Source: SAR324 cluster bacterium
GTDB taxonomy: Bacteria; SAR324; XYD2-FULL-50-16
Direction of reading: 5' to 3'
DNA length: 64,000 nt
Assembly (NCBI GenBank): GCA_028282885.1
Contig: JANQGX010000032.1
Span: 86,439-150,438 of the forward strand
This document shows, one piece after another, positions 1,034-63,773 of this stretch (position 1 is the stretch's first letter; the number at the start of each line of letters is the position of its first letter). Made by a program: the position numbers and the translations under genes. The notes beneath the pieces were generated by a model. That model ran no database searches. It worked only from the letters and a program-made list of their open reading frames with translations, and was not told the DNA's origin.

Positions 1034-1165
1034 GACAAAAAGCAGTTCATCAAAAACCTGATATCCCCGATAGTCAACCGGGGTGAAGCCCCCGGAATTA
1101 GCGGTTAAGGGGCATTTCTGGTCTTTAATTGAGCGTTTCACGCAATTGAACGTGACACCGGTGTT

Positions 1166-23547: not shown

Positions 23548-25239
23548 ATGGATATTGATATTTCAATAAAAATTGGCGGTGAAGCCGGGCAGGGTATCCA
23601 GACTGTGGGTGACCTCCTGGCCAATGTCTGCCGTGAAGCAGGGCTCTATATCACTGGCATCAATGATTTCGAGTCCAGAATCAGGGGCGGACACAGTTAT
23701 TTTCAGATCAGAATATGCAATACGTCGGTTTCAGCTCCGGAAACCACTGCCCACATGGTGGTTGCGCTGAATGAACAGACCTATGAGTTGCATCACCAGG
23801 ATATTCATGAGGGTGGGCTTGTTATAATGGATGCCCGTGAAGCCCCGGCTGAAAACGTGATTGCGGTTCCCATCAGGGAGTTGGCAGTGGAAGCCGGGGG
23901 CAGGGTGATGGCCAACACGGTTGCTGTCGGTGCTGTGCTCGGTTTGCTGGGTGCCCCTTTTCACATCCTGGAAGGCTTGCTGACCAGACGCTTTTCCAGA
24001 AAAAGCCAACAGATCGTGGATAACAATATTGCAGCTGCCAAACTGGGTTTTGAGGCCGTCAAAGATACTTCTTTCAAATGGTCCTTCGACTGGAACAGGG
24101 GAGAACCCAAGGGAACCCTTATCAACGGTTCTAAAGCGGTAGCTCTCGGGGCTCTGGCTGCAGATTGTCGATTCGCCGCATTTTACCCCATGTCTCCGGC
24201 TACCTCCGTCATGCAGGATCTGAACTCCTTTTCCGGTAAAATTCCCATGATAGTGGAACAGGTGGAGGATGAGATCGCCGCAGTCAACGCCATCATTGGG
24301 GCTTCATATGCCGGGATTCGATCAATGACCTCCACGTCGGGCGGCGGATTTTCCCTGATGGTGGAAGGACTCGGTCTGGCCGGGATTACGGAAACTCCTA
24401 TTGTTGTCGTCGATGCCCAACGACCCGGACCTGCTACCGGATTGCCGACCCGTACCGCCCAACCCGACCTGCTTTTTGCCATCAGGGCGTCCCAGGACGA
24501 ATTCCCCAGGTTTGTGCTGGCCCCGGGATCGCCGGGAGAGGCCTATACCATTACCACCAGGGCGTTCGAACTGGCCGACAAGTACCAGGTGCCGGTTATC
24601 ATCCTGGTTGACCAGTATCTCTGCGACTCTCTCTTTATCGAAGAGAACCCATTTAAAATTCCCACCGAGATTAATCGTTATACCGTCACCGACGAGGATA
24701 TGGCTGACCCGAGACAATATGTCCGTTATGCCCTGACCGAAGACGGCGTCTCTCCAAGAGCCCTGCCATGCAATGGTGAAGCCCTGGTGATGGCCTCCGG
24801 GAATGAGCATACGGAAGACGGCCATATCAGTGAAGATCCTGCCAACCGGGTTGCCATGATGGATAAACGCGCCGCTAAAATCCCGAGGATGATTGATGAA
24901 CTGGATCCGCCCGAAACTTATCATGGTGAAAGCGAATTGCTGGTTGTGGGATGGGGATCCACCAGGGGCGCTATCAGAGAAGCGGTAGAGATCCTGAGAA
25001 ACGGGGGAATGGATATCGGCTGCCTGCATTTCACGGACATCTGGCCGTTTCCCACAGATGTTGTGACGGCCGCACTTGAAAAAGCCGAACGGTTTGTCAT
25101 GGTGGAGCAAAACTCATCGGCCCAGTTTGGACAGTTGATCAGGGAACAAACCGGTCTGTCTTACTCCGCATCAATCCTCAAATATGACGGCAGGCCTTTC
25201 TATACTGATGAGGTTGTTGAGAAAATCAAACAGATATAA
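23548..25239 (+). CDS. 2-oxoacid:ferredoxin oxidoreductase, fused gamma/alpha subunit
   Basis: 563 aa; N-terminal gamma-like domain (MDIDISIKIGGEAGQGIQTVGDLLA...) followed by alpha (KorA-like) domains. Confidence 0.8.
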   Translation: MDIDISIKIGGEAGQGIQTVGDLLANVCREAGLYITGINDFESRIRGGHSYFQIRICNTSVSAPETTAHMVVALNEQTYELHHQDIHEGGLVIMDAREAPAENVIAVPIRELAVEAGGRVMANTVAVGAVLGLLGAPFHILEGLLTRRFSRKSQQIVDNNIAAAKLGFEAVKDTSFKWSFDWNRGEPKGTLINGSKAVALGALAADCRFAAFYPMSPATSVMQDLNSFSGKIPMIVEQVEDEIAAVNAIIGASYAGIRSMTSTSGGGFSLMVEGLGLAGITETPIVVVDAQRPGPATGLPTRTAQPDLLFAIRASQDEFPRFVLAPGSPGEAYTITTRAFELADKYQVPVIILVDQYLCDSLFIEENPFKIPTEINRYTVTDEDMADPRQYVRYALTEDGVSPRALPCNGEALVMASGNEHTEDGHISEDPANRVAMMDKRAAKIPRMIDELDPPETYHGESELLVVGWGSTRGAIREAVEILRNGGMDIGCLHFTDIWPFPTDVVTAALEKAERFVMVEQNSSAQFGQLIREQTGLSYSASILKYDGRPFYTDEVVEKIKQI

Positions 25240-25250
25240 GGAGCAGGATC

Positions 25251-26105
25251 ATGGTGAAAATCGAAGATTATCATAATGACTACGAAAACAAATGGTGCCC
25301 GGGTTGCGGAAACTTCGGCCTTTTGGATGCCATGAAAGATGCACTGGTCAACCTGGATATTGCTCCCCGTGATATTCTCCTCATTTCCGGAATCGGTCAG
25401 GCTGCCAAAACGCCCCATTTCATGAATTGTAATTTCTTTCACACCCTACACGGCCGGGCATTGCCGATTGCAACCGGTGCCAAGCTGGCCAATCATGACC
25501 TGAAAATTCTGGTTAATTCGGGGGATGGAGATTGCTATGGTGAGGGGGGGAATCATTTTATCAATGCCATTCGTCGCAATCTGGATATCACCCTTTTGGT
25601 TCATCACAACAAGGTTTATGGTTTGACCAAAGGCCAAGCAGCTCCGACATCGGATATGGGATTTGTCACCCCGCAACAACCCGATGGCGTCAGAACTGAT
25701 CCGTTGAATCCAGTCAAACTAGCACTCAGTCTGGGAGCGAGTTTTGTGGCAAGGGGATTTTCCAACAACCGGAAGCACCTGAGCCGGTTGATACAGGATG
25801 CCATCCAGTACAGGGGATTCTCCCTGGTGGACATACTTCAGCCCTGTGTCACCTATAACAAGATCAATTCCCACGCCTGGTTCAAGAAGCGGGCTTATGA
25901 TCTGTATGAAACGGATTACCAACCCGATAAACTGGACGAGGCACTCTTTCTGGCCGAGGAGTGGGAAGATAAAATCCCAATTGGTATTCTTTATCGTAAG
26001 GATTCAATTCCCTTTCATGAAAGAATAGGCCAGCTCAAAGAGGGAACATTGATATCTCGTCCTTATGATGCGGCGACGATTCAGGAAATTCTCTCCGCGG
26101 TCTGA
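25251..26105 (+). CDS. 2-oxoacid:ferredoxin oxidoreductase beta subunit (TPP-binding)
   Basis: 284 aa, CPGCG N-terminal motif and TPP-binding GDGDCYGEGGNHFINAIRRN; 12 nt downstream of alpha gene. Confidence 0.8.
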   Translation: MVKIEDYHNDYENKWCPGCGNFGLLDAMKDALVNLDIAPRDILLISGIGQAAKTPHFMNCNFFHTLHGRALPIATGAKLANHDLKILVNSGDGDCYGEGGNHFINAIRRNLDITLLVHHNKVYGLTKGQAAPTSDMGFVTPQQPDGVRTDPLNPVKLALSLGASFVARGFSNNRKHLSRLIQDAIQYRGFSLVDILQPCVTYNKINSHAWFKKRAYDLYETDYQPDKLDEALFLAEEWEDKIPIGILYRKDSIPFHERIGQLKEGTLISRPYDAATIQEILSAV

Positions 26106-40543: not shown

Positions 40544-40930
40544 ATGAAAATCTTCGCCAGGACCATAACGCTACTATTGAGTATTGCATTGATAATAACC
40601 ATTGGACTTTCCCAGTCCGCTTACTCTGCAGGAAAATTATCATCCGCGATAATCGGTCATCTGCTGGATAAGGATAAACTGATTACCATTGTTTCCGGTA
40701 ACGGGGGACCTGTTTATACGGTAAAAGAGGTTGGTGGAGAAATCCTGGCAACCGGAATTCCTGCATCTATCCTGTTTGCCAGATTCCCTGAATTAAAAAA
40801 TGTCATTGAACACGGATTTGCCGGAAACGACGCAAGTCTGGGGCCTAAACCTGAAGTATATCAAAAAAACAGCATGGATGGGATAGCAAATCCCGGTTTA
40901 CTTATTGACCACTCTTTTCTGCTTGACTAG
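40544..40930 (+). CDS. exported hypothetical protein
   Basis: 128 aa with N-terminal signal peptide (TITLLLSIALIITIGLSQSAYSA). Confidence 0.45.
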   Translation: MKIFARTITLLLSIALIITIGLSQSAYSAGKLSSAIIGHLLDKDKLITIVSGNGGPVYTVKEVGGEILATGIPASILFARFPELKNVIEHGFAGNDASLGPKPEVYQKNSMDGIANPGLLIDHSFLLD

Positions 40931-40943
40931 ATCAAATCAAGAC

Positions 40944-41012
40944 ACAGGGGTGGCATAACGCCTGAGATCAGACCCTTTGAACCTGACCCGGATAATACCG
41001 GTGTAGGGAACA
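40944..41012 (+). promoter_or_regulatory. TPP (thiamine pyrophosphate) riboswitch aptamer
   Basis: ACAGGGGUGGC...GCCUGAGAUCAGACCCUUUGAACCUGACCCGGAUAAUACCGGUGUAGGGAACAGC matches THI-box conserved core (GGGGUG, CUGAGA, ACCCUUUGAACCUGAUCUGGAUAAUGCCAGCGUAGGGAA) in plus orientation. Confidence 0.75.
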
Positions 41013-41563
41013 GCTTCTTTTTTGGCCTCTTCTCACTGCTTCCGTTCATTCCTGTCTTTTTCAAGTCATACCAAATTCTGTATACAATTGCTGTTTATCC
41101 AATGCATTGATCGTCGTAGCCGGTTTTTTGTTGGGCCATTTTCCGCCTCCTGATTCTCCCGGCAGATGTGGTTACGTCCAATCTGCCGGGAGCAGAAATC
41201 CTTTCAGAAAAAAAACCAACCGGAGACAGCTAGGTCGAAGACATGGCCGGTTCCCTGTTAAACGGTGGATTCAGTCAGTCAACAGTCACGTTTGCATCAG
41301 GTCCATGAGGGCAGTTCATTCTCCTTGGTGCTTAAAAAGAAATCGAGCCTGGTTCGGGAAAAGTTTAGTCCCGAAAATTTATGAATTTTTAAAGATACCT
41401 GACATGATGGTGTCAAAGATCCCTTTTATAGTATTAGGACAATCTTTTCCGAATCAAATCGGGATAGCTGATTGGCGGTCAAGCAGTTTATTGATTTGAC
41501 ACTGTTTCATTTATTTGTAATGACTGATGAATATAAAACGCAACACCTGAAGGGAGATTGATC

Positions 41564-41917
41564 ATGAAAGAGATAGTTGCCGACAAAGCTTTGGTGGCCT
41601 ATTGCGGACTGTATTGCGGAGCTTGCAGAAAATATCGCGTTGGAAAATGCCCGGGATGTCATGAAAATGAAAAAGCATCCTGGTGCAAAGTGAGATCCTG
41701 TTGCGTGGAAAATGGACATACGAGTTGTGCGGATTGTCATCAGTACGATGATATCATGGAGTGCAAGGGATTCAATAATTTCATCTCCAGGATCTTCTCC
41801 CTGGTTTTCAATTCGAACCGGGAATCCTGCATCAAACGCATTGGTGAAGCAGGGCTGGAAACCTTCGCGAGTGAAATGGCCCAAAAGGGCATGATGTCCC
41901 ATAAACGAAAACCTTAA
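41564..41917 (+). CDS. DUF3795-like cysteine-rich protein
   Basis: 117 aa with YCGLYCGACRKYRVGKCPGCHE...CKVRSCCVENGHTSCADC Cys-rich pattern; AGGGAG RBS before ATG 41564. Confidence 0.5.
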   Translation: MKEIVADKALVAYCGLYCGACRKYRVGKCPGCHENEKASWCKVRSCCVENGHTSCADCHQYDDIMECKGFNNFISRIFSLVFNSNRESCIKRIGEAGLETFASEMAQKGMMSHKRKP

Positions 41918-44679: not shown

Positions 44680-45576
44680 TCAGGATTTTGTCAGTGCAGA
44701 TTTCAGGGATTCGGGATAATCCGGCTGGGCGCCGGGTATGGTAGCTGTGTACGAGCCGAAAGAGTTGGCGATGCGAACGGCCTCTGCGGATGGGATTCCA
44801 AGGAATCTTGCCACGGCGTAACTTCCCACAAAAGCATCCCCGGCTCCGGTTGTATCGACCGGTGTGATAGCCGTGGTGGGAATTTCGGTTGAAATGCCTT
44901 TTTCCAAAATCTCTGCTCCGGCCTTGCCTTTGGTCAGAATGACTGTTTCGATATCCAAAGTTCCTCCCAGGTCTTCAAAGGAATGAATTTCAAAATTCCT
45001 CTGCAAGGCGTCACATTCGGTCTCATTGACAACCAGGGTGTGAACTCCGGCAAACACTTCCCTGGCAAAAGCTGTGAAAGGGGCGAGATTGAAGACTACT
45101 TTGATGTCACGAGACTTTAACCAGTCGATAATGCGGGCGGTTTCCTTCGGATCCAGCTCTGCTTGTAAGACTGCCATATCCCCGGGATTAAAGAGATCCG
45201 AAAACCCGGTGACTGATTCCAGGGTGAGGCATTTGTTAGCCCCCGAGTGAACGACAATGCTGTTCTCACCTTCATCATTAACCTGGATGTAAGCTGCACC
45301 GGTCGGTTGGTCGTTGATTTCCGCAATGGTTGCCTGATCAAAACCGCCCTGTGCAAGTTTGGTCCTGATCAGTTCGGCATCCTGATCTGCGCCGATAGCA
45401 GAAACAAAGCGCGTTTCGGTCAGCAATTGCCTGCAGGTAACCGCCTGGTTGAAGCCCTTACCCCCGGTGTACTTTGCCAGGGAATCCGCGATTATTGTCT
45501 CGCCGGGCATAGCGATGGATGGGGTTCTCAGGACATAGTCAACGTTGGAACTGCCGATAATCCATAATGTGGTCAT
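44680..45576 (-). CDS. rbsK: ribokinase (PfkB family)
   Basis: N-terminal GSSNVDY...GGKGFNQAV and C-terminal GAGDAFVGSYA motifs of ribokinase. Confidence 0.8.
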   Translation of the reverse strand: MTTLWIIGSSNVDYVLRTPSIAMPGETIIADSLAKYTGGKGFNQAVTCRQLLTETRFVSAIGADQDAELIRTKLAQGGFDQATIAEINDQPTGAAYIQVNDEGENSIVVHSGANKCLTLESVTGFSDLFNPGDMAVLQAELDPKETARIIDWLKSRDIKVVFNLAPFTAFAREVFAGVHTLVVNETECDALQRNFEIHSFEDLGGTLDIETVILTKGKAGAEILEKGISTEIPTTAITPVDTTGAGDAFVGSYAVARFLGIPSAEAVRIANSFGSYTATIPGAQPDYPESLKSALTKS

Positions 45577-45591
45577 TACATTTCTCCCGGA

Positions 45592-46230
45592 TTAAAGATT
45601 CAGCAGAATCGTGTTTCGGGTGGAGATAATATGTTCCCGCATCTTTTTTTCCGCGGCTTCTTCATCCCGGTCTAAAATCGCTTTGCAGATATCCCTGTGC
45701 TCCCTGCCCATGATGGGATATCGGCCCGGTATCGTATTGGCAATCTCCCTTTCCTGTCTCAGGATGGTTTTGTAGTTGGACAGAATCTGTGAAATACGAA
45801 CGTTACCGCTGGATTCAACAAGTTGGTCGTGAAATTCGTCACTAAGCTGATTGATGACTGCCGCATCGGTGATTTCGCCTTCGGCAATTTTGCCGAACTG
45901 ATCATGAAAGAACTCAAATTTCTCAACCGGGAACTGTCTTCCCGCTGTTTTTCTGGCTGCCAGTCCCTCCAGCATTTCGCGAATTTCAAAGAAATCCTTT
46001 ATGTTTTGCAGGCTGATGTTGGCGACAATAACACCACGATGGGGGATCCGTTCCAGTAGCCCTTCGGTTTCAAGCCGGTTAATGACTTCCCTCACCGGTG
46101 TGCGACTGATGTTCAGCTTAGCCGCAAGTTCCCCTTCCACAAGGGCTTCCCCCGGTTTAAAGGTGCCATCCATGATCCATTCGGAGATTTTTTCGTAAGC
46201 CTCATCGCTGAGGGGTTTCTTTTTAGCCAT
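45592..46230 (-). CDS. GntR-family transcriptional regulator (FadR/FCD subfamily)
   Basis: N-terminal wHTH (GELAAKLNISRTPVREVINRLETEGLL) and C-terminal FCD domain; 15 nt upstream of ribokinase gene. Confidence 0.85.
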   Translation of the reverse strand: MAKKKPLSDEAYEKISEWIMDGTFKPGEALVEGELAAKLNISRTPVREVINRLETEGLLERIPHRGVIVANISLQNIKDFFEIREMLEGLAARKTAGRQFPVEKFEFFHDQFGKIAEGEITDAAVINQLSDEFHDQLVESSGNVRISQILSNYKTILRQEREIANTIPGRYPIMGREHRDICKAILDRDEEAAEKKMREHIISTRNTILLNL

Positions 46231-46395
46231 AAATTGTTCCGGAGGTGAACATTGTTACGCCGGGTTGACGACAATCATCTATAGATATTAGGTGTCACCG
46301 GATGCGTCAACACGTATCTGAAAGGTCGCCGCGTTTTGTGTTTTAAGGATCTCATTCTACATTACCCGCTCTCCCTGGTAAATGGCGAGAGTTCT

Positions 46396-47121
46396 CTAGC
46401 CGGCTTTACTATTGATTACCAGTGGTGTGGCTGCGCTTTTAAACCTCTCAATCTCTTCGGGTTCGATGGGCAGTACAAACTCTACCAACCCCATGAATTC
46501 ACCGTTTTCATACCAGGGCGACTGGTAACAGAAAATCCCGCTGTCCGGGTGACTTTTGGGTTTGTATCTCAGGTAGGAATGGGTTTTCTGCTCGGATAAG
46601 AGCTTTCTGATAATCTCCTGGGTTGAAGCTTGATGGCATTGAATGCCGTTTTTACCGATTACCTCTTCTCCACCTGCATATTCGAAGGCTTTAATCGCCT
46701 CGTCGTTCAAACCGACGATGGTACCATCCTTGGCCATAACCGAAACCTCTGCCGGAAAATCCTTGACCCATCGGACCAGGGGTGGGAGCTCAACAGTCAT
46801 TGGGGTTTTAAATCCGTCTTCCGCTCGATCCAATTGGCTGATATGTCTAATGGCCTGTTGATTGATAGCTCCGTAAATCCTGGGGACCTCTTGATCCGAG
46901 TCGGGACATCGTTCGACCTTCATCTCTGCAGACAGTTTCCCGGGATCAATACAGAGCAGACAGGGTTCATCCTTTGCCCCGTATAGTCGGTTGGTTCTCT
47001 CCATAACCTGGTAGGAAAAACTGCAGGGGATAAATCCGTCGGTTTTTAATTCGGCAGGAGCAAAGGTTCCTTCCCGGCGATTAGAAATGTAATCCTCAAA
47101 CAGGCAGATGTAATATATCAT
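46396..47121 (-). CDS. DUF952 domain protein with C-terminal PAS-like domain
   Basis: N-terminus MIYYICLFEDYIS...DGFIPCSFSYQ typical of DUF952; C-terminal ~120 aa PAS-like. Confidence 0.5.
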   Translation of the reverse strand: MIYYICLFEDYISNRREGTFAPAELKTDGFIPCSFSYQVMERTNRLYGAKDEPCLLCIDPGKLSAEMKVERCPDSDQEVPRIYGAINQQAIRHISQLDRAEDGFKTPMTVELPPLVRWVKDFPAEVSVMAKDGTIVGLNDEAIKAFEYAGGEEVIGKNGIQCHQASTQEIIRKLLSEQKTHSYLRYKPKSHPDSGIFCYQSPWYENGEFMGLVEFVLPIEPEEIERFKSAATPLVINSKAG

Positions 47122-47400
47122 TATGGTTCCTTTAGATAACTGAAATGTAATTGTTTAGCTGATGTTCTTCGAAATACCAAAGATGTTGAGTTTTTGGATT
47201 CCTGTAAGCGAGAGACGGCCTTATGGAGTTCCTGATCCAAATCTCACCAGTTACAGGTGGATTCACGTGCTTCCGGAAAGCAACAGCTTTGCGTGATTAC
47301 CAGCATTCTATTACGTTAAAACAAAACTATTCAAGTTAAAAACTTCCGGGAGCACTGACCCATTGCGCAGGAACGATCGGACATTGATGCAGTTCCTTCG

Positions 47401-48255
47401 TTAACCCCGCTCCAGACAATCGATTAGCTGATCGATGTGAACGATTTTTTTATTCAATCCCAACCGGCCGGCCAAAATCGAAACCGGTAGTTGTTTGATG
47501 GCGCTTTTTTCCAGGATCTCAAAATTCCAGAAGATCTCGCTGCAAGTGTCATCCGCAATGATCTTCTTATCCGTCATGACAACCACCCGCTCGAAGTTTT
47601 CAGCCACAAATTCCATGTCGTGGGTAATGGTCACTACGGTCTTGCCCCGTTTCAGCAGTTCCAATATGATGCTTCTCTGTCGTTCCAGACCGACAAGATC
47701 CTGACCTGCGGTGGGTTCATCCAGGATAATATACTTGGCGCCCATGGCAATCACCGAGGCGATGGTTACGAATTTCCTTAAGGAAAAGGGTAGATCGTAG
47801 GGATTCAGTTTCAGATCATCGGTCACCCCGCAGAGTTCTGCCGCATCCATGACCTTCTCTTCCACTTCGCTCTCCGGCAGCTTACGATAGCGCAAAGTAT
47901 AAGCAATTTCGTCAAATACGGTACGATTGAAGATTTGATCTCCCGGATTCTGGAAAACATAGCCCACCTTCTTTGAAAGCTGGGCGACGGTCTGGTCGGA
48001 AGTGTTCTCTCCATCTACCAAAATGGTTCCTTGCTGCGGTCGCAGTAACCCGTTGAACATTTTGACGAAAGTGGTTTTTCCGGCACCGTTCTGCCCGACA
48101 ATGGCAATATTCTCACCACTATCGATCTGCAGTGAAACATCGTCTACAGCCAGAAAACCGTTTTCATAGGAGAAGCTGACATTGCTGATTTTAATTCCTT
48201 CCATCACTCGCCTCCTCCTGAAGCAGTTCCTTAAATACCGAAACCGCATTGTCAA
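47401..48255 (-). CDS. ECF transporter ATPase component (EcfA2-like)
   Basis: Walker A GQNGAGKTT, signature/Walker B present; likely start at internal MEGIKISNV (~48204). Confidence 0.85.
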   Translation of the reverse strand: MTMRFRYLRNCFRRRRVMEGIKISNVSFSYENGFLAVDDVSLQIDSGENIAIVGQNGAGKTTFVKMFNGLLRPQQGTILVDGENTSDQTVAQLSKKVGYVFQNPGDQIFNRTVFDEIAYTLRYRKLPESEVEEKVMDAAELCGVTDDLKLNPYDLPFSLRKFVTIASVIAMGAKYIILDEPTAGQDLVGLERQRSIILELLKRGKTVVTITHDMEFVAENFERVVVMTDKKIIADDTCSEIFWNFEILEKSAIKQLPVSILAGRLGLNKKIVHIDQLIDCLERG

Positions 48256-49063
48256 TGGTGGTGGGAATTCTTTTCAGCTTTTTCCCCGTTCTTTTTTCAT
48301 ACGCAAGCCCCACCTTGGCTATCTGCGGCAAGTTCACACCATGGTTCGGCACGGCTTCATTGGTCAGTACATTTTCAGTCTTATCGTCAAAGATAATTCG
48401 TTTATCATCCAGTAAAATCACCCGATTGGCATATTCACTGATCAGATCCATTTTGTGTTCGACCAGGATAATGGTCTTGTTCTTCTCCTTGAGTAATCTG
48501 ATAATTTCAAAGACCTTTTCTGTTCCCTGCGGATCCAGTTGGGAAGTCGGTTCATCTATGATGAGGATGTCGGGATCCATCACCAGGACTGATGCCAGGG
48601 CAATTCTCTGCCTCTGACCTCCTGAAAGATCGATGGGGTGCTTGTCTGCCAATTCAGAGATCTTGAGTTCTTCCAGAATAGAGGTAACCCGCGGTATAAT
48701 CTCATCTCTTTCAATTCCAAGGTTTTCAAGACCGTAAGCCACTTCATTGAACACGGTTTTCTTGACCCCGCTGACCTGTATGAAAGGATTCTGAAAGACA
48801 AACCCGATTTTTATGGCAATTTCGCCCATGGACATCTCATCGATATTCCTGCCTTCGACAAAGACCTCTCCTTGGAACTTGCCTTTATGAAACCCTGGAA
48901 TAAACCCCCTCAGGATATTGCAGAGAGTTGTTTTTCCGCTGCCGTTCCTGCCGATAACAGCGACAAAATCCCCCCTGTCCACTGTCAATGAAATATCTTC
49001 CAAAACCGTGGATTTACCGATGGGGTATCGGTAGCTGACATTTCTCACTTCCAGGGCTTTCAT
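48191..49063 (-). CDS. ECF transporter ATPase component (EcfA1-like)
   Basis: Walker A GRNGSGKTT, LSGGQRQR, Walker B ILIIDEPTSQLD. Confidence 0.85.
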   Translation of the reverse strand: MKALEVRNVSYRYPIGKSTVLEDISLTVDRGDFVAVIGRNGSGKTTLCNILRGFIPGFHKGKFQGEVFVEGRNIDEMSMGEIAIKIGFVFQNPFIQVSGVKKTVFNEVAYGLENLGIERDEIIPRVTSILEELKISELADKHPIDLSGGQRQRIALASVLVMDPDILIIDEPTSQLDPQGTEKVFEIIRLLKEKNKTIILVEHKMDLISEYANRVILLDDKRIIFDDKTENVLTNEAVPNHGVNLPQIAKVGLAYEKRTGKKLKRIPTTIDNAVSVFKELLQEEASDGRN

Positions 49064-49833
49064 AGAATAAACCTCCAGATTAAAAAGAGGACAAAGCCCA
49101 GGATTGCCAGGCCGATCACAATCTTGTCCCGGGAGGCCATGTTAATCTCTTTCAGGTGAGTCTTCTTGACCTCAACGGAAAATGCCCTCGCCTCCATGGT
49201 AATCACCTTGTCTTCAATATCGGCAATGGATGAAATGATCAGCGGTGTCAGCGTTGGTAAAAAGGCCTTGAGCCGCACCAGCAAATTACCTTCAGTCTCG
49301 ATTCCCCTGGCTCGCTGTGCCTGCATGATGGTCTTGCTCTTTTTGATGAAATCGGGGATCATCTGCAAGGTCGATAAAAACACGTATGAACCGATATGTG
49401 AAATCCCCACCTTTTGCAGCGATATCATGAAATCCTCGATATCCGTGGTCTCAAAAAAGAGCAGAATCGTTCCACCGGCAACAAGAATAATAGACGTCAG
49501 GCTCAGTGCATCGGCCAGTCCCTGCTCATAAATCTTCAGGATTCCCCACCTCCACAACACTGTTTCCGAGGGAACCAGGCAGGCCTTGATCAAAAAGATA
49601 AACAGGAACATGATGACGATGGCACTGACCAGCTTTTTCGCATAGGGAACGAACTGTCCCTCCAGAAGCGCCAGAATCAGCAGACAGGGAAACACCACAA
49701 AGTAGCCGAACCGAAAATCCCCGGCAATAAAGGCCGAAAGACAGACGAAGAAGACAACAGTTAATTTTGTCATCGGGTAAAGGCCCGATAAAACTCCCTT
49801 CCTATTCATTACCTGACACTCCTTGTTATACAA
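49060..49833 (-). CDS. ECF transporter transmembrane component (EcfT/CbiQ family)
   Basis: ~250-aa 5-6 TM protein with CbiQ-like conserved ARxxRG region (QAQRARGIETEG). Confidence 0.8.
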   Translation of the reverse strand: MYNKECQVMNRKGVLSGLYPMTKLTVVFFVCLSAFIAGDFRFGYFVVFPCLLILALLEGQFVPYAKKLVSAIVIMFLFIFLIKACLVPSETVLWRWGILKIYEQGLADALSLTSIILVAGGTILLFFETTDIEDFMISLQKVGISHIGSYVFLSTLQMIPDFIKKSKTIMQAQRARGIETEGNLLVRLKAFLPTLTPLIISSIADIEDKVITMEARAFSVEVKKTHLKEINMASRDKIVIGLAILGFVLFLIWRFIL

Positions 49834-49869
49834 CCGGGAGCAAACATCGCTCCCGGCTGATGAAGATCC

Positions 49870-50454
49870 CTAGGCTGCTTCCTCAACATATCGGGAACCC
49901 AGGTTGAACTTGATCAATGTGCTTTCCGGGATTCGTTTAATAACGAAATAGACGATGAAGGTCGCCAGCAATTTATCAACGGTCTCAACAATAATACTCT
50001 GACTGAAAACAGCTTCCCAGATTCCCTTACCGGATGCCAGGAAAAAGGAGGTGATAACGGAAGAACCGCCACCTGCCGTTCCACCGAACAGGATGACAGT
50101 CATGGGAACCGCGGTTACCTGCACAATGGCCCAGATCAGGATACTGGTTACGACAGTCATCTTGAAGGTGGTAAACCAGCCTTTTCTGGCACAAAGACCG
50201 GCCACGATACCAACAGCAATGTTAACAACCGCAAAAGGTATCAAAACGGGGTTTCCAATACCGGTAATCAGGTTGGTCACCAATCCGACCAAAGCGCCAC
50301 CGATTGGGCCTGTTAAAGCACCTGCCAGAATCGTCCCGATGACGTCCAGATAGAGCGGCAGTTTCAAAAGGGTTACAATATAGCCCCCGACCACGTTTAC
50401 GGCAATACAGATCGGAATCAGCAGTGTTGTCATCATTCCCAGTTTTTTCAGCAT
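49870..50454 (-). CDS. ECF transporter substrate-specific (S) component, substrate unknown
   Basis: 194-aa 6-TM protein; start placed at ATG 50454 with GAGGAG RBS (ORF-track TTG 50469 upstream is probably non-coding); first gene of S-T-A-A' operon. Confidence 0.6.
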   Translation of the reverse strand: MLKKLGMMTTLLIPICIAVNVVGGYIVTLLKLPLYLDVIGTILAGALTGPIGGALVGLVTNLITGIGNPVLIPFAVVNIAVGIVAGLCARKGWFTTFKMTVVTSILIWAIVQVTAVPMTVILFGGTAGGGSSVITSFFLASGKGIWEAVFSQSIIVETVDKLLATFIVYFVIKRIPESTLIKFNLGSRYVEEAA

Positions 50455-50489
50455 CTCTCTTCTCCTCAAAAAATTAACATTCGAAAAAG

Positions 50490-50509
50490 TGTCAATTCCA
50501 CAATTGACA
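50490..50509. promoter_or_regulatory. perfect palindrome TGTCAATT-ccac-AATTGACA (candidate operator) upstream of ECF operon
   Basis: 8-bp arms, 4-nt spacer, 36-55 nt upstream of S-component start; GT-N14-AC pattern compatible with GntR/FadR-type sites. Confidence 0.35.
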
Positions 50510-50698
50510 AACTCTCCTTACAAAACGCCGGAGAACGGCGTGCAACCAACGCCGAAATGAAGAACGGTTCGCATTCCCACCCCGCACCGTTTCGGCGGAC
50601 TAAAAGCAATCGAAATCATGTTCAAACCAACCTGCTTGCCATTGAGCATGATCCCGATTGCTTGAGAACTGCTACGGGCTTTGAGCGACTCCCGCCCG

Positions 50699-51694
50699 TC
50701 AGCTTCTTACAAACTTTCGATACAGGTCGACCACATCTCCAAAAACAATCTCAATAAACAACTCCTTGAACCTGCGACTATCGGCATTCATAACGACATA
50801 AGCATTTTTGGTGAAATTGAATCGGTCGACCAGGTCTACAATGGTCTGCCCCTGTGTCAAACCGGGTTCGCAACAGACCGTCAAAGCGCTTCGATAGACA
50901 TCTTCCGGTTTACTGATACCAGGATCGATGGCATAGATAATGGGCACCAGGTCGTGTATCACCGCCCCGGTTATTCGTCGGTTCGACCAATAGGACCCGG
51001 CGTAGGCCAGGGTCATGTCATACATGATCCGCCCGATCTCTCCTCCTTCCTGTCTCAGAAAAAAGAGATCGTTCATAGTGAAAAACGTGTTGTAGGTAAC
51101 ATCGAGGCCAAACATGTAAATATCAACATCAGTGCCGATACCGTACATCACTTCCACTGCTTCGGGATCGAACCAGTAGTTGAACTCGGATACCGGCGTC
51201 ATGTTGCCCCGATGAACACCACCTCCCATGGACCAGATGGTTTTAACCGTTTTCATTACCTCCGGTTCCTTCCTGATCGCCAGGGCGATATTGGTCACCG
51301 GGCCGATAGCCAGAATCTCGACTTTCCCGGGGTTCTGTCTGACCGTGTCAATGATAAAATCAACAGCATGCGTATCCGATCGGGTTGCTTCATCAAAGGA
51401 GAGGTCTACATCACCCAAGCCGTCTGATCCGTGGGTGTTGCCGGCGTCCTTTAACTCGCCTGTAGCACTCTCAAGATCCTTCAGGGAGGCAATGGAGCCC
51501 GGGTAAACCTTACAATCCGCTCTCATCAACCTGATCAGCTTCATGGCATTCACAGTCACATATTCCAAACTTTTATTGCCGGCAACGGTGGTTATGCCCT
51601 TGACCTCAAACTGTGATGAACTCAGCGCGGTGATGATGGCAAACGCGTCATCAACCCCGGGATCGGTGTCTATAATCAGTTTTCTTCTCTTCAT
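50699..51694 (-). CDS. inosine-uridine-preferring nucleoside hydrolase family protein
   Basis: N-terminal IIDTDPGVDDAFAI aspartate cluster (Ca2+ site) and overall IU-NH fold length (331 aa). Confidence 0.85.
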   Translation of the reverse strand: MKRRKLIIDTDPGVDDAFAIITALSSSQFEVKGITTVAGNKSLEYVTVNAMKLIRLMRADCKVYPGSIASLKDLESATGELKDAGNTHGSDGLGDVDLSFDEATRSDTHAVDFIIDTVRQNPGKVEILAIGPVTNIALAIRKEPEVMKTVKTIWSMGGGVHRGNMTPVSEFNYWFDPEAVEVMYGIGTDVDIYMFGLDVTYNTFFTMNDLFFLRQEGGEIGRIMYDMTLAYAGSYWSNRRITGAVIHDLVPIIYAIDPGISKPEDVYRSALTVCCEPGLTQGQTIVDLVDRFNFTKNAYVVMNADSRRFKELFIEIVFGDVVDLYRKFVRS

Positions 51695-62445: not shown

Positions 62446-62751
62446 CTATACGATTATTGGATCATCGGGAGAAGAAACTGCTTTAGCTCCGAAATGTTCA
62501 ACCCTGCGTTTCCAATTTGAACCAAGGTAGTAGAAACGAAGTGAATCCTCTTCGGGGTAATAGGTGCTCAACAAACGAGCTTTCAATTTTTCCCATTGTC
62601 CCGGATCGACATTACACTCGAAGACTGAATACTGAACACGTTGTCCAAAATCCAGACAGTGTTTGGCAATTCGCCTCAGTCTTCGTTCTCCGTCTCTCTC
62701 AATTGTTGCCACGTCATAAGATACAAGAACCAGCATTTGAATCATCTCCAA
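62446..62751 (-). CDS. cas2: CRISPR-associated endoribonuclease Cas2
   Basis: 101 aa, MLVLVSYDV... Cas2 N-terminal motif; overlaps cas1 end. Confidence 0.9.
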   Translation of the reverse strand: MEMIQMLVLVSYDVATIERDGERRLRRIAKHCLDFGQRVQYSVFECNVDPGQWEKLKARLLSTYYPEEDSLRFYYLGSNWKRRVEHFGAKAVSSPDDPIIV

Positions 62752-63773
62752 ATAAAAGCAGGATAATAGTCCAGATCACCTCTGATATGTCTTGATAGCA
62801 GTATGGTTTGTACATGGAATAGCAGTCCGATCTTGATCTTTTCCTTCAAAATCGGATGGTTAAGTGTTTCCTGTTTTCGCTTCTGGTAGGCTGTGAGCAA
62901 TGTTTTCCTTGCTGTGTCAGACATTAACACAGCTCCGTTTTCAGTATTCTTAAAATCGCTAATCTTCAGTTGCTGAAGATTGATGAGGCTTAGAGCAAGG
63001 CGATCCCCAAGAAAAGCCCTGAACTCTTCCAGCAGATCCAAAGCCAGACTTTGTCGGCCGGGGCGGTCTCTATGTAGAAAACCAACATAAGGATCTAATC
63101 CCACACCTTCCAGCGCAGAAACGCAATCTTGTAACATAATGGCGTAAATGAATGAAAGAAGGGCATTTACCGGATCTCTCGGAGGTCTTCTGTTTCTTCC
63201 TGCAAATTTAAAATCATCCTTTTGCTGTGTAATCAGATTTTGAAAATTCTTAAAATAGCAGTTGGCAGCTTCACCTTCTCTACCACGAAGAGAATCAAGA
63301 TCCGCTATGTTCTGAACTTTTCCAAGTGTTCTTTTTAATTCCGCGACGGCGATTTTGAGATCTGTAGCTCCGGCACATTCAGGATTATTACGCAACATTC
63401 TCTGGAATACCGTCCGGCTGTTAGAGATTTTTGAAGCTACTATGAACCGGGATATACTTGTCGATTTAACGGGGTCATCAGCCCATCGGTATTGCTCCCT
63501 TCTCAACAGCACGTTACCGGTTTGAGGTCCCTGAATCCTTGCCTGGAATCGACCATATTCACTGAAATGAGCTATACCAATGCCGTTCTGGCTGCAGGCA
63601 AGCATCAGTTGAGGTGAAAGCGATATCCTTCCGAGACAGAAGATATTGGATAAGGTCAATAGAGGAAGCTGCAGTGCTTTTTTTCTTTCAATCTCCACAA
63701 CCACGGTTTCCCGATCTTTATGGAGGTATGCTCCTTCTGTAGTTACAAAGAGTGTATTCAGTAGTTTCTTCAA
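62742..63773 (-). CDS. cas1: CRISPR-associated endonuclease Cas1 (type I-C)
   Basis: 343 aa, MKKLLNTLFVTTEGAYL... typical Cas1 N-terminus and conserved acidic residues; TTG start overlapping cas4 stop. Confidence 0.9.
   Translation of the reverse strand: MKKLLNTLFVTTEGAYLHKDRETVVVEIERKKALQLPLLTLSNIFCLGRISLSPQLMLACSQNGIGIAHFSEYGRFQARIQGPQTGNVLLRREQYRWADDPVKSTSISRFIVASKISNSRTVFQRMLRNNPECAGATDLKIAVAELKRTLGKVQNIADLDSLRGREGEAANCYFKNFQNLITQQKDDFKFAGRNRRPPRDPVNALLSFIYAIMLQDCVSALEGVGLDPYVGFLHRDRPGRQSLALDLLEEFRAFLGDRLALSLINLQQLKISDFKNTENGAVLMSDTARKTLLTAYQKRKQETLNHPILKEKIKIGLLFHVQTILLSRHIRGDLDYYPAFIWR

Follow-up and report, generated by a model that had tools for sequence, protein, structure and literature searches.

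We analysed a 64,000-nt stretch of the genome of a SAR324 cluster bacterium (contig JANQGX010000032.1), referred to at its full length of 64 kb as the window, with regard to the thiamine pyrophosphate (TPP) aptamer that lies on its plus strand between a gene for a 128-amino-acid (aa) protein and a gene of the DUF3795 family. We concluded that this element is very probably the fossil leader of an operon of thiM, thiE and thiD, followed by ABC transporter genes, of which the aptamer has been kept and the switch, the platform and the genes have been lost. A first-pass annotation, made from the letters of the window, had described a TPP riboswitch with no recognisable thiamine gene downstream and had left three explanations: a thiamine-responsive DUF3795 gene, a small hidden thiamine-related open reading frame (ORF), or a riboswitch relic. 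Comparison with three intact relatives favoured the last of these, through a 50-nt deletion, a missing P1 helix, missing thiM and thiE and a probable remnant of thiD.

A TPP aptamer without the parts that make a switch

RNA families were scanned over the whole window by Rfam cmscan at gathering thresholds. The TPP family, RF00059, matched 40936..41026 on the plus strand with 61.2 bits (gathering score 54.3; E 1.4e-09; model positions 1-105). It was the single Rfam family found in the 64 kb and was recovered again by a local scan. A permissive local Rfam scan of the spacer gave further matches at chance level only (IMES-1, 17.8 bits; CbSR9, 17.5 bits). The aptamer proposed in the first-pass annotation was therefore borne out by the RF00059 search suggested there, and its position had to be corrected: it starts 6 nt past the TAG stop codon (40928..40930) of the upstream 128-aa ORF, not 13 nt past it at 40944, which is approximately the first base of P2.

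The P2-P5 core occupies 40946..41011; it has no P3a, and P3 consists of just 3 bp. Among the nucleotides that contact the ligand (U39-A43 of J3-2, G60, C77 and G78 in the numbering of Escherichia coli thiM), we observed that the CUGAGA of J3-2 (40962..40967), G60 and G78 are kept, and that C77 is replaced by U. The J5-4 dinucleotide at 41002 (+), in the pyrophosphate pocket, thus reads UG in the window, the conserved form being CG. C77 and G78 are highly conserved and contact the pyrophosphate/metal site of TPP (PMC7824784; PMC3764141).

The closing helix P1 is degenerate. Its 5′ strand, GACAC at 40941..40945 (+), has ACAC where the aligned relatives described below have GCGC, in a (U)GCGC strand that pairs with GUGC(A), and four of the five P1 pairs in the Rfam alignment of the window are non-canonical. 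The sole substitute, obtained from a constrained fold, was a weak long-range AAGACA/UGUCUU pairing. A terminator scan of the window found no terminator-like site 3′ of the aptamer on the plus strand. When the properties of an RF00059 riboswitch were compared one by one, the element matched in sequence and structure above the gathering score and failed for P1, for the expression platform and for a cognate gene in cis. By its sequence, this is a genuine TPP aptamer without the parts that make a switch.

We also considered a design in which TPP would switch expression on. In the minimum free energy fold, the 5′ side of the aptamer (AAGACACAGGGGUG) pairs with 41050..41060, which is followed by UUUUUC. 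This design was rejected because the downstream strand is inherited leader sequence (see below) and because the fold z-score of 40925..41230 is just −1.4.

Three metagenomic loci retain the intact riboswitch and its operon

A search of the JGI metagenomes with the exact 40-nt aptamer pattern gave no match. A relaxed pattern yielded 45 TPP aptamers, which served as our comparison set. The closest among them, L141, L130 and L123, have cores identical to that of the window at 60-61 of 67 positions (91%; 61 of 67 for both L141 and L130). The core common to the four loci is GGGGUGGCA...GCCUGAGAU.AGACCC, with the CUGAGA T-loop, the ACCUGA / GUAGGGA pyrophosphate helix and no P3a. P3 has 4 bp with a GAAA loop in the relatives and 3 bp in the window, and position C77 is a C in all three.

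The aptamers of the relatives score 68-69 bits with an intact P1, (U)GCGC:GUGC(A). Since intact aptamers of this kind reach no higher than that, the 61.2 bits of the window are not in themselves a sign of decay; it is the anatomy that gives the sign. In L141, a promoter of TTGACA + TATAAT type precedes the aptamer, and a terminator follows it (GCCGUUUCC-AGUUGG-GGAACGGC + U9), with a stem of 13 bp and a folding energy of about −18 to −19 kcal/mol. The 5′ strand of this terminator has an alternative pairing with the 3′ end of the aptamer, at −12.1 kcal/mol. On the 3′ side of the terminators of the relatives lie thiM (PF02110, E 4.5e-92), thiE (PF02581, E 6.9e-67) and thiD (PF08543, E 9.4e-99), and then ABC transporter genes.

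The window resembles these loci in its P2-P5 core, in the spacing of a −35 hexamer, in a U-tract and the leader that follows the terminator, and in a thiD-like remnant further downstream. It differs from them in that 50 nt are gone, comprising the 3′ strand of P1, the antiterminator and the 5′ strand and loop of the terminator; in the mutated 5′ strand of P1 and the U at C77; and in the absence of thiM, thiE and most of thiD.

A deletion of 50 nt between two near-identical repeats

Exactly 50 nt present in L141, L130 and L123 are missing from the window, and also from L007, a contig of a closely related strain. In local alignments the gap falls at 41011..41012 (+), with the same count against each of the three relatives, between the direct repeats AGGGAAC, which is the 3′ end of the aptamer, and GGGGA(A)C, which belongs to the 3′ half of the terminator. 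The strand of L141 that forms the 5′ side of the terminator can pair with either, so the two repeats are the rival partners of one and the same sequence.

Accordingly, the window from 41007 onward (GGAACAGCTTCTTTTTTGGCC...) does not align to the sequence directly 3′ of the aptamers of the relatives; it aligns to the 3′ half of their terminator, the T-run and the leader that follows. The local alignments scored 32-34, as compared with means of 17.5-19.2 (sd 2.3-2.6) and maxima of 26-29 for shuffled sequences. As a T-run may inflate such scores, we used a natural control in which window 41012..41110 was aligned to the 220 nt that follow each of the 45 TPP aptamers. L123 (37), L130 (30) and L141 (25) took ranks 1-3; all the others scored 24 or less, with a median of ~16.

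What is left of the terminator is a 3′ strand remnant AGC and the U-tract TTCTTTTTT (41015..41023), together 41012..41023 (+), without a 5′ partner strand. The remnant AGC reads GGC in L007 and in the relatives, and TTCTTTTTT corresponds to T9 in the latter. As a result of the deletion, the U-run TTCTTTTTT stands directly after the aptamer without a hairpin. No expression platform had seemed obvious earlier, and the 5′ half of the terminator and the antiterminator are indeed missing.

The U-tract is followed by a pyrimidine-rich leader remnant at 41024..41063 (+), which in the relatives lies between the terminator and thiM. The segment 41020..41099 has 21 C and 9 G, an excess of C over G at the 97th percentile of the window. 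We considered whether this segment, whose richness in C is real, could serve Rho as a rut site; its composition is explained by homology to the leader of the relatives.

A probable decayed fragment of thiD in the spacer

Searches of the window with the ThiM, ThiE and ThiD proteins of the relatives (tblastn) found no intact thiM, thiE or thiD in the 64 kb. They located at 41135..41269 (+) a probable pseudogene fragment of thiD (phosphomethylpyrimidine kinase), corresponding to about residues 136-180 of ThiD. ThiD of L130 was 36% identical to it across 45 aa, at E 5.7e-05 when the 600-nt spacer was searched and at E 0.036 for the whole window; ThiD of L141 matched it with 52% identity over 23 residues. 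The fragment translates as AIFRLLILPADVVTSNLPGAEILSEKKPTGDS, a stop and then VEDMAGSLLNGG, and the aligned ThiD residues 136-180 read AIIEHLIPMADILTPNLPEASVL...; its best-kept stretch, 41135..41203, encodes AIFRLLILPADVVTSNLPGAEIL. Its ADxxTxNLP motif is collinear with the ADxxTPNLPEA of ThiD. Against all of Pfam the fragment matched PF08543 (Phos_pyr_kin) alone, with 15.1 bits (cutoff 27), E 0.015, at profile positions 115-155.

The frame is interrupted by a stop at 41231..41233 inside the fragment and by stops at 41108 and 41117 just upstream, and ~45 of ~280 codons are recognisable. Scans of the single spacer ORFs against the family libraries had missed this fragment, which was seen once the relatives had named the proteins to be sought. 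It is weak when taken alone; as the third gene predicted for the operon, with both orientation and order as expected, we find it convincing. The loss between ~41064 and 41134 must then amount to some 1.9 kb: thiM and thiE, and about 135 codons at the start of thiD. The statement that there is no recognisable thiamine gene downstream consequently holds for intact genes, and not for this decayed piece.

The same spacer had raised the possibility that the regulated gene is an unannotated small one for a thiamine-related protein, located between the aptamer and DUF3795. Frames are available for it, namely a 130-aa ORF with a TTG start (41107..41499, +) and several ORFs of 20-43 aa. None of the ORFs in 41027..41563 matched a Pfam or NCBIfam family. 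The 130-aa ORF, which also overruns the DUF3795 promoter described below, was searched against 1.84 billion representative proteins, where nothing reached E ≤ 0.001. No spacer ORF has a well-placed Shine-Dalgarno sequence, and the sole protein-like signal, that of thiD, is interrupted by stops and lies in another frame than the long ORF. By these comparisons the TTG ORF is spurious, in agreement with its first description as non-coding, and a hidden thiamine gene is scarcely credible.

The hairpin that had been noted in this stretch lies inside the thiD fragment. It indeed lacks a U-run on either strand, and it is longer than the 9 bp first given: a perfect inverted repeat of 12 bp (41155..41166, CTCCCGGCAGAT; 41180..41191, ATCTGCCGGGAG) with a loop of 13 nt. 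The repeat covers the LPAD...NLPGA codons; in L141, where thiD is intact, its arms do not match perfectly. At L007 1137..1148 the loop (window 41167..41179) reads as the reverse complement (…GGCAGAT tggacgtaacc), and the contig of L007 ends in this loop. Either this is a real inversion, by template switching or recombination between the arms, or it is an assembly artefact at the contig end; such an inversion would be plausible in unconstrained pseudogene DNA.

The DUF3795 gene has a promoter motif of its own

The first credible plus-strand coding sequence downstream of the aptamer is, as originally annotated, that of a Cys-rich DUF3795 protein of 117 aa (41564..41917, +; PF12675, 25.6 bits against a cutoff of 22.6). 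The subtype found in the window has 1017 homologues in many phyla. For comparison we collected 80 DUF3795 loci from GTDB contigs with one genome per species (32-homologue alignment) and six metagenomic ones (L008-L013). We also collected the contigs that carry the three homologues nearest to the window's protein, which are 70-72% identical to it.

A functional TPP riboswitch that controls DUF3795 through a leader of ~540 nt, for example by Rho-dependent termination, would make DUF3795 a newly thiamine-responsive gene. In favour of this, DUF3795 is the sole plus-strand gene downstream, the aptamer is above the Rfam threshold, and the C-rich segment at 41020..41099 resembles a rut site. The absence of P1 and the deletion of the antiterminator and half of the terminator argue against it, as do the presence of the pyrimidine-rich stretch in the relatives as inherited leader and the thiD fragment that lies between the aptamer and DUF3795. 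Moreover, a search for TPP elements ahead of DUF3795 genes, as had been proposed, found none at the 86 other loci: a regular expression for the TPP core matched in the window's own strain only, and Rfam detected no TPP element on the 20 best loci (96 kb). DUF3795 was therefore rejected as a TPP-regulated family, no TPP element recurring upstream of it in other genomes.

When the spacer was compared with the DUF3795 loci by blastn, homology began only at ~41385 and revealed a palindromic motif, ACCTGACAT-N3-G-N-TGTCAAA, with a −10-like TAnnnT 8-9 nt further on. The window has this promoter/operator sequence (ACCTGACATGATGGTGTCAAAG, 8 nt, TATAGT) at 41397..41432 (+), 146 nt ahead of the DUF3795 ATG and ~370 nt downstream of the aptamer. 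It precedes DUF3795 in L008, L011, L012 and L016, which carry the closest homologues and come from different organisms. Copies were found at L008 1333-1354, L011 5880-5901, L012 5738-5759, L012 6842-6821 (minus strand), L016 1915-1936 and L072 1462-1483. Because DUF3795 has this promoter/operator and shares homology with other loci only from ~41385, the aptamer falls outside the DUF3795 unit. From these alignments, DUF3795 appears to be driven from its own promoter, with the riboswitch as a neighbour and the gene not its target; the thiamine responsiveness suggested for it at first is highly unlikely.

The motif looks like the operator/promoter of a small regulon, possibly under the control of a WYL regulator. 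One copy in L012, identical at 22 of 22 positions, stands upstream of a Zn_ribbon_2 (PF12674) gene beside a regulator of WYL/HTH_PafC type. The layout is reminiscent of PafBC/DriD-type promoters. The window contained no second copy of the motif, and none of its scanned ORFs encoded a WYL regulator.

Two further elements were observed around DUF3795 genes. In the window, a hairpin TTCGGGA-N9-TCCCGAA followed by AATTTATGAATTTTT (41353..41395, +) stands just ahead of the promoter motif; it is a weak terminator-like structure, not flagged by the consensus scan, that may end read-through from upstream genes. In L026, from a Candidatus Moraniibacteriota metagenome-assembled genome, a DUF3800-IX RNA (RF02968, 55.2 bits; 1089..1157, minus strand) lies ~850 nt upstream of DUF3795, and is probably unrelated to it.

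The upstream side and the comparison of two strains

On the 5′ side of the aptamer, alignment points to a candidate remnant of the ancestral promoter at 40905..40933 (+). A −35-like TTGACC (40905..40910) lies 36 nt ahead of the GGGG of the aptamer, and the TTGACA of the relatives is found at 36-37 nt. The −10 region has diverged (GACTAG/TAGATC in the window; TATAAT, TAATAG and TAATAA in the relatives). In the control with the 45 loci, the upstream alignment scored no better than for unrelated TPP loci; the promoter remnant is thus a likely one for which the position of the −35 hexamer is the sole support.

The 128-aa ORF (40544..40930, +) has a signal-peptide-like N-terminus. Only two further clusters of its very rare family, at 96% and 40% identity, occur in a set of 5.8 billion proteins. 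The 40% homologue, P0002, aligns to residue 117 at most, so that the last 11 residues are unmatched; their codons and the stop sit inside the promoter-like stretch. Since the protein alignment ends at residue 117 and the tail lies in that stretch, a rearrangement junction near 40895 is suggested.

Downstream of the gene for the 40% homologue there is a terminator that belongs to this gene, and a TPP element is absent. All three independent contigs that carry this homologue end ~80-140 nt past the gene, just beyond its terminator (L004 8393..8533; L005 2510..2650; L006 1487..1566), which suggests that a repeat or a variable region interrupts assembly at this place. We also tried synteny by way of the MATE transporter. 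Its best homologues are 57-65% identical, only the AraC/GyrI-MATE pair is kept, and the sequence past MATE was different in every relative, so this route gave no orthologous spacer.

Three contigs derived from the Sequence Read Archive (L001-L003) match the window at 100% identity, which makes them uninformative. The strain L007 has the same arrangement, with 20 differences in 1137 aligned positions (1.8%); its aptamer scores 68.2 bits and retains C77. Three of the differences fall within the 91 nt of the aptamer and 17 in the other 1046 nt. Polarised by the relatives, two of the three are derived changes of the window (C77 to U at 41002, and 41012) and one, at 40971, is a derived change of L007. 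These counts, which are small and come from two strains, show no purifying selection on the aptamer as far as the alignment can tell. In the 128-aa gene, 11 nucleotides differ between the two strains, of which five change an amino acid.

These observations bear on a further explanation, in which the truncated aptamer has been exapted and still binds TPP, either within the mRNA of the 128-aa gene as its 3′ untranslated region (UTR) or as a small independent RNA. It could then affect the stability of the upstream mRNA or read-through into downstream sequence, or act as a ligand sponge or a trans-acting RNA. Such a role would fit the position of the aptamer 6 nt past the stop codon with no intervening terminator, the 91% identity of its core to functional relatives, the C77 and 68.2 bits of L007, and the retained −35-like hexamer. 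It is opposed by the lack of constraint on the aptamer between the strains (3/91 vs 17/1046), by C77U in one strain at a ligand-contacting position, and by the absence of a conserved partner structure (fold z-score of −1.4, as above). Among the loci with homologues of the 128-aa protein, the arrangement also occurs in no second lineage. We regard exaptation as unlikely. A specific form of it, a bacterial 3′-UTR TPP riboswitch born from the deletion, in which a TPP-binding 3′ structure beside the U-tract of the mRNA for the exported 128-aa protein would tune 3′-end formation or stability of that mRNA or read-through toward DUF3795, we consider very unlikely from the sequence at hand.

A proposed history of the locus

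We prefer, as stated at the outset, the explanation by decay of a thiM-thiE-thiD leader, and propose the following course of events. As judged from the three intact relatives, the ancestral unit would have begun with a sigma-70-type promoter followed by the TPP aptamer. Without TPP, the 3′ end of the aptamer (GGGAACG) would pair with the 5′ strand of the terminator, so that termination is avoided. With TPP, P1 and P4 would be locked and the terminator (13 bp + U9) would form, stopping transcription ahead of thiM.

A deletion of 50 nt between the near-identical repeats AGGGAAC and GGGGAAC would then have fused the aptamer to the U-tract and taken with it the 3′ strand of P1, the antiterminator and half of the terminator. 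Further loss, in one or more deletions of ~1.9 kb in total, would have taken away thiM and thiE as well as the first ~135 codons of thiD. The remnants would have drifted thereafter: the 5′ strand of P1 from GCGC to ACAC, P3 shortened, C77 changed to U and a stop introduced into the thiD fragment. The upstream 128-aa gene would now extend by 11 codons into the old promoter region. That the events ran in this direction is what parsimony suggests.

It is possible that the aptamer still folds and even binds TPP. With its switching helix, expression platform and cognate gene all missing, it would nevertheless regulate nothing, and in this sense we infer a loss of function from the anatomy of the locus.

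Several points weigh against this interpretation. The core is still 91% identical to that of functional relatives and above the Rfam gathering score, which means that decay set in recently or that the sequence is still partly constrained. Because a −35-like hexamer stands at the ancestral position and no terminator follows the upstream gene, the aptamer is probably still transcribed. The thiD fragment is weak alone, its DNA-level alignment scoring 26 against a shuffle maximum of 28. The comparison loci L141, L130 and L123 are metagenomic and without taxonomic assignment. Finally, the only close relative is L007, 1.8% diverged, from which the order and age of the events are not datable.

Other features of the window

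A cluster on the minus strand (44680..51694) converges on the locus of the relic. It comprises genes for a nucleoside hydrolase (IU_nuc_hydro), an ECF S-component (a weak PF12822 match), EcfT (CbiQ), two ABC ATPases, a DUF952 protein, a GntR/FCD regulator and a PfkB sugar kinase. From these families it looks like an operon for nucleoside/riboside uptake and salvage, for which the Rfam scan of the window found no riboswitch. Near the window end there is a Cas1 gene (PF01867, E 3e-103; 62742..63773, minus strand), and because of its position a CRISPR-Cas locus is probably located at or past the edge.

At 23548..26105 (+) the window encodes a 2-oxoacid:ferredoxin oxidoreductase with TPP-binding domains (POR_N, TPP_enzyme_C). 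As a TPP-dependent oxidoreductase is encoded and this copy of thiM-thiE-thiD is lost, TPP would have to come by way of another locus or by uptake. Loss of the copy alongside TPP-dependent enzymes suggests thiamine auxotrophy or a second locus.

Comparison with known riboswitches

An above-threshold Rfam match for TPP beside a gene of unknown function could mislead: DUF3795 does not belong to a thiamine regulon, and more generally an isolated riboswitch match in Rfam does not make the next gene a member of the regulon. The locus also points to a route of decay for riboswitches of the terminator type. The 3′ strand of the aptamer and the 3′ strand of the terminator are near-identical because both must pair with the same sequence, and the deletion occurred exactly between these repeats.

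In gene loss or genome reduction, most riboswitches are reported to disappear with their cognate genes, and the TPP riboswitch together with the thiamine pathway is given as an example (PMC4779614). As in those cases, the riboswitch of the window decays together with the biosynthetic genes that it formerly controlled. Unlike in those cases, the genome is not that of a reduced endosymbiont and appears to be of a free-living type, judging from the many sensory kinases and transporters of the window, and the aptamer, which still exceeds the Rfam threshold, represents an intermediate stage. The decay is of a kind already known, and does not reveal a new thiamine-regulated gene.

Non-coding RNAs derived from or controlled by riboswitches are also known, for example the SAM riboswitch RNAs SreA and SreB, and Rli55/EutX under the control of a B12 riboswitch. 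Like these, the window has an aptamer with no protein-coding target after it. In SreA/SreB and Rli55/EutX, however, the aptamer and the platform are intact and conserved, whereas in the window the platform has been deleted, and evidence of conservation or of a target is absent.

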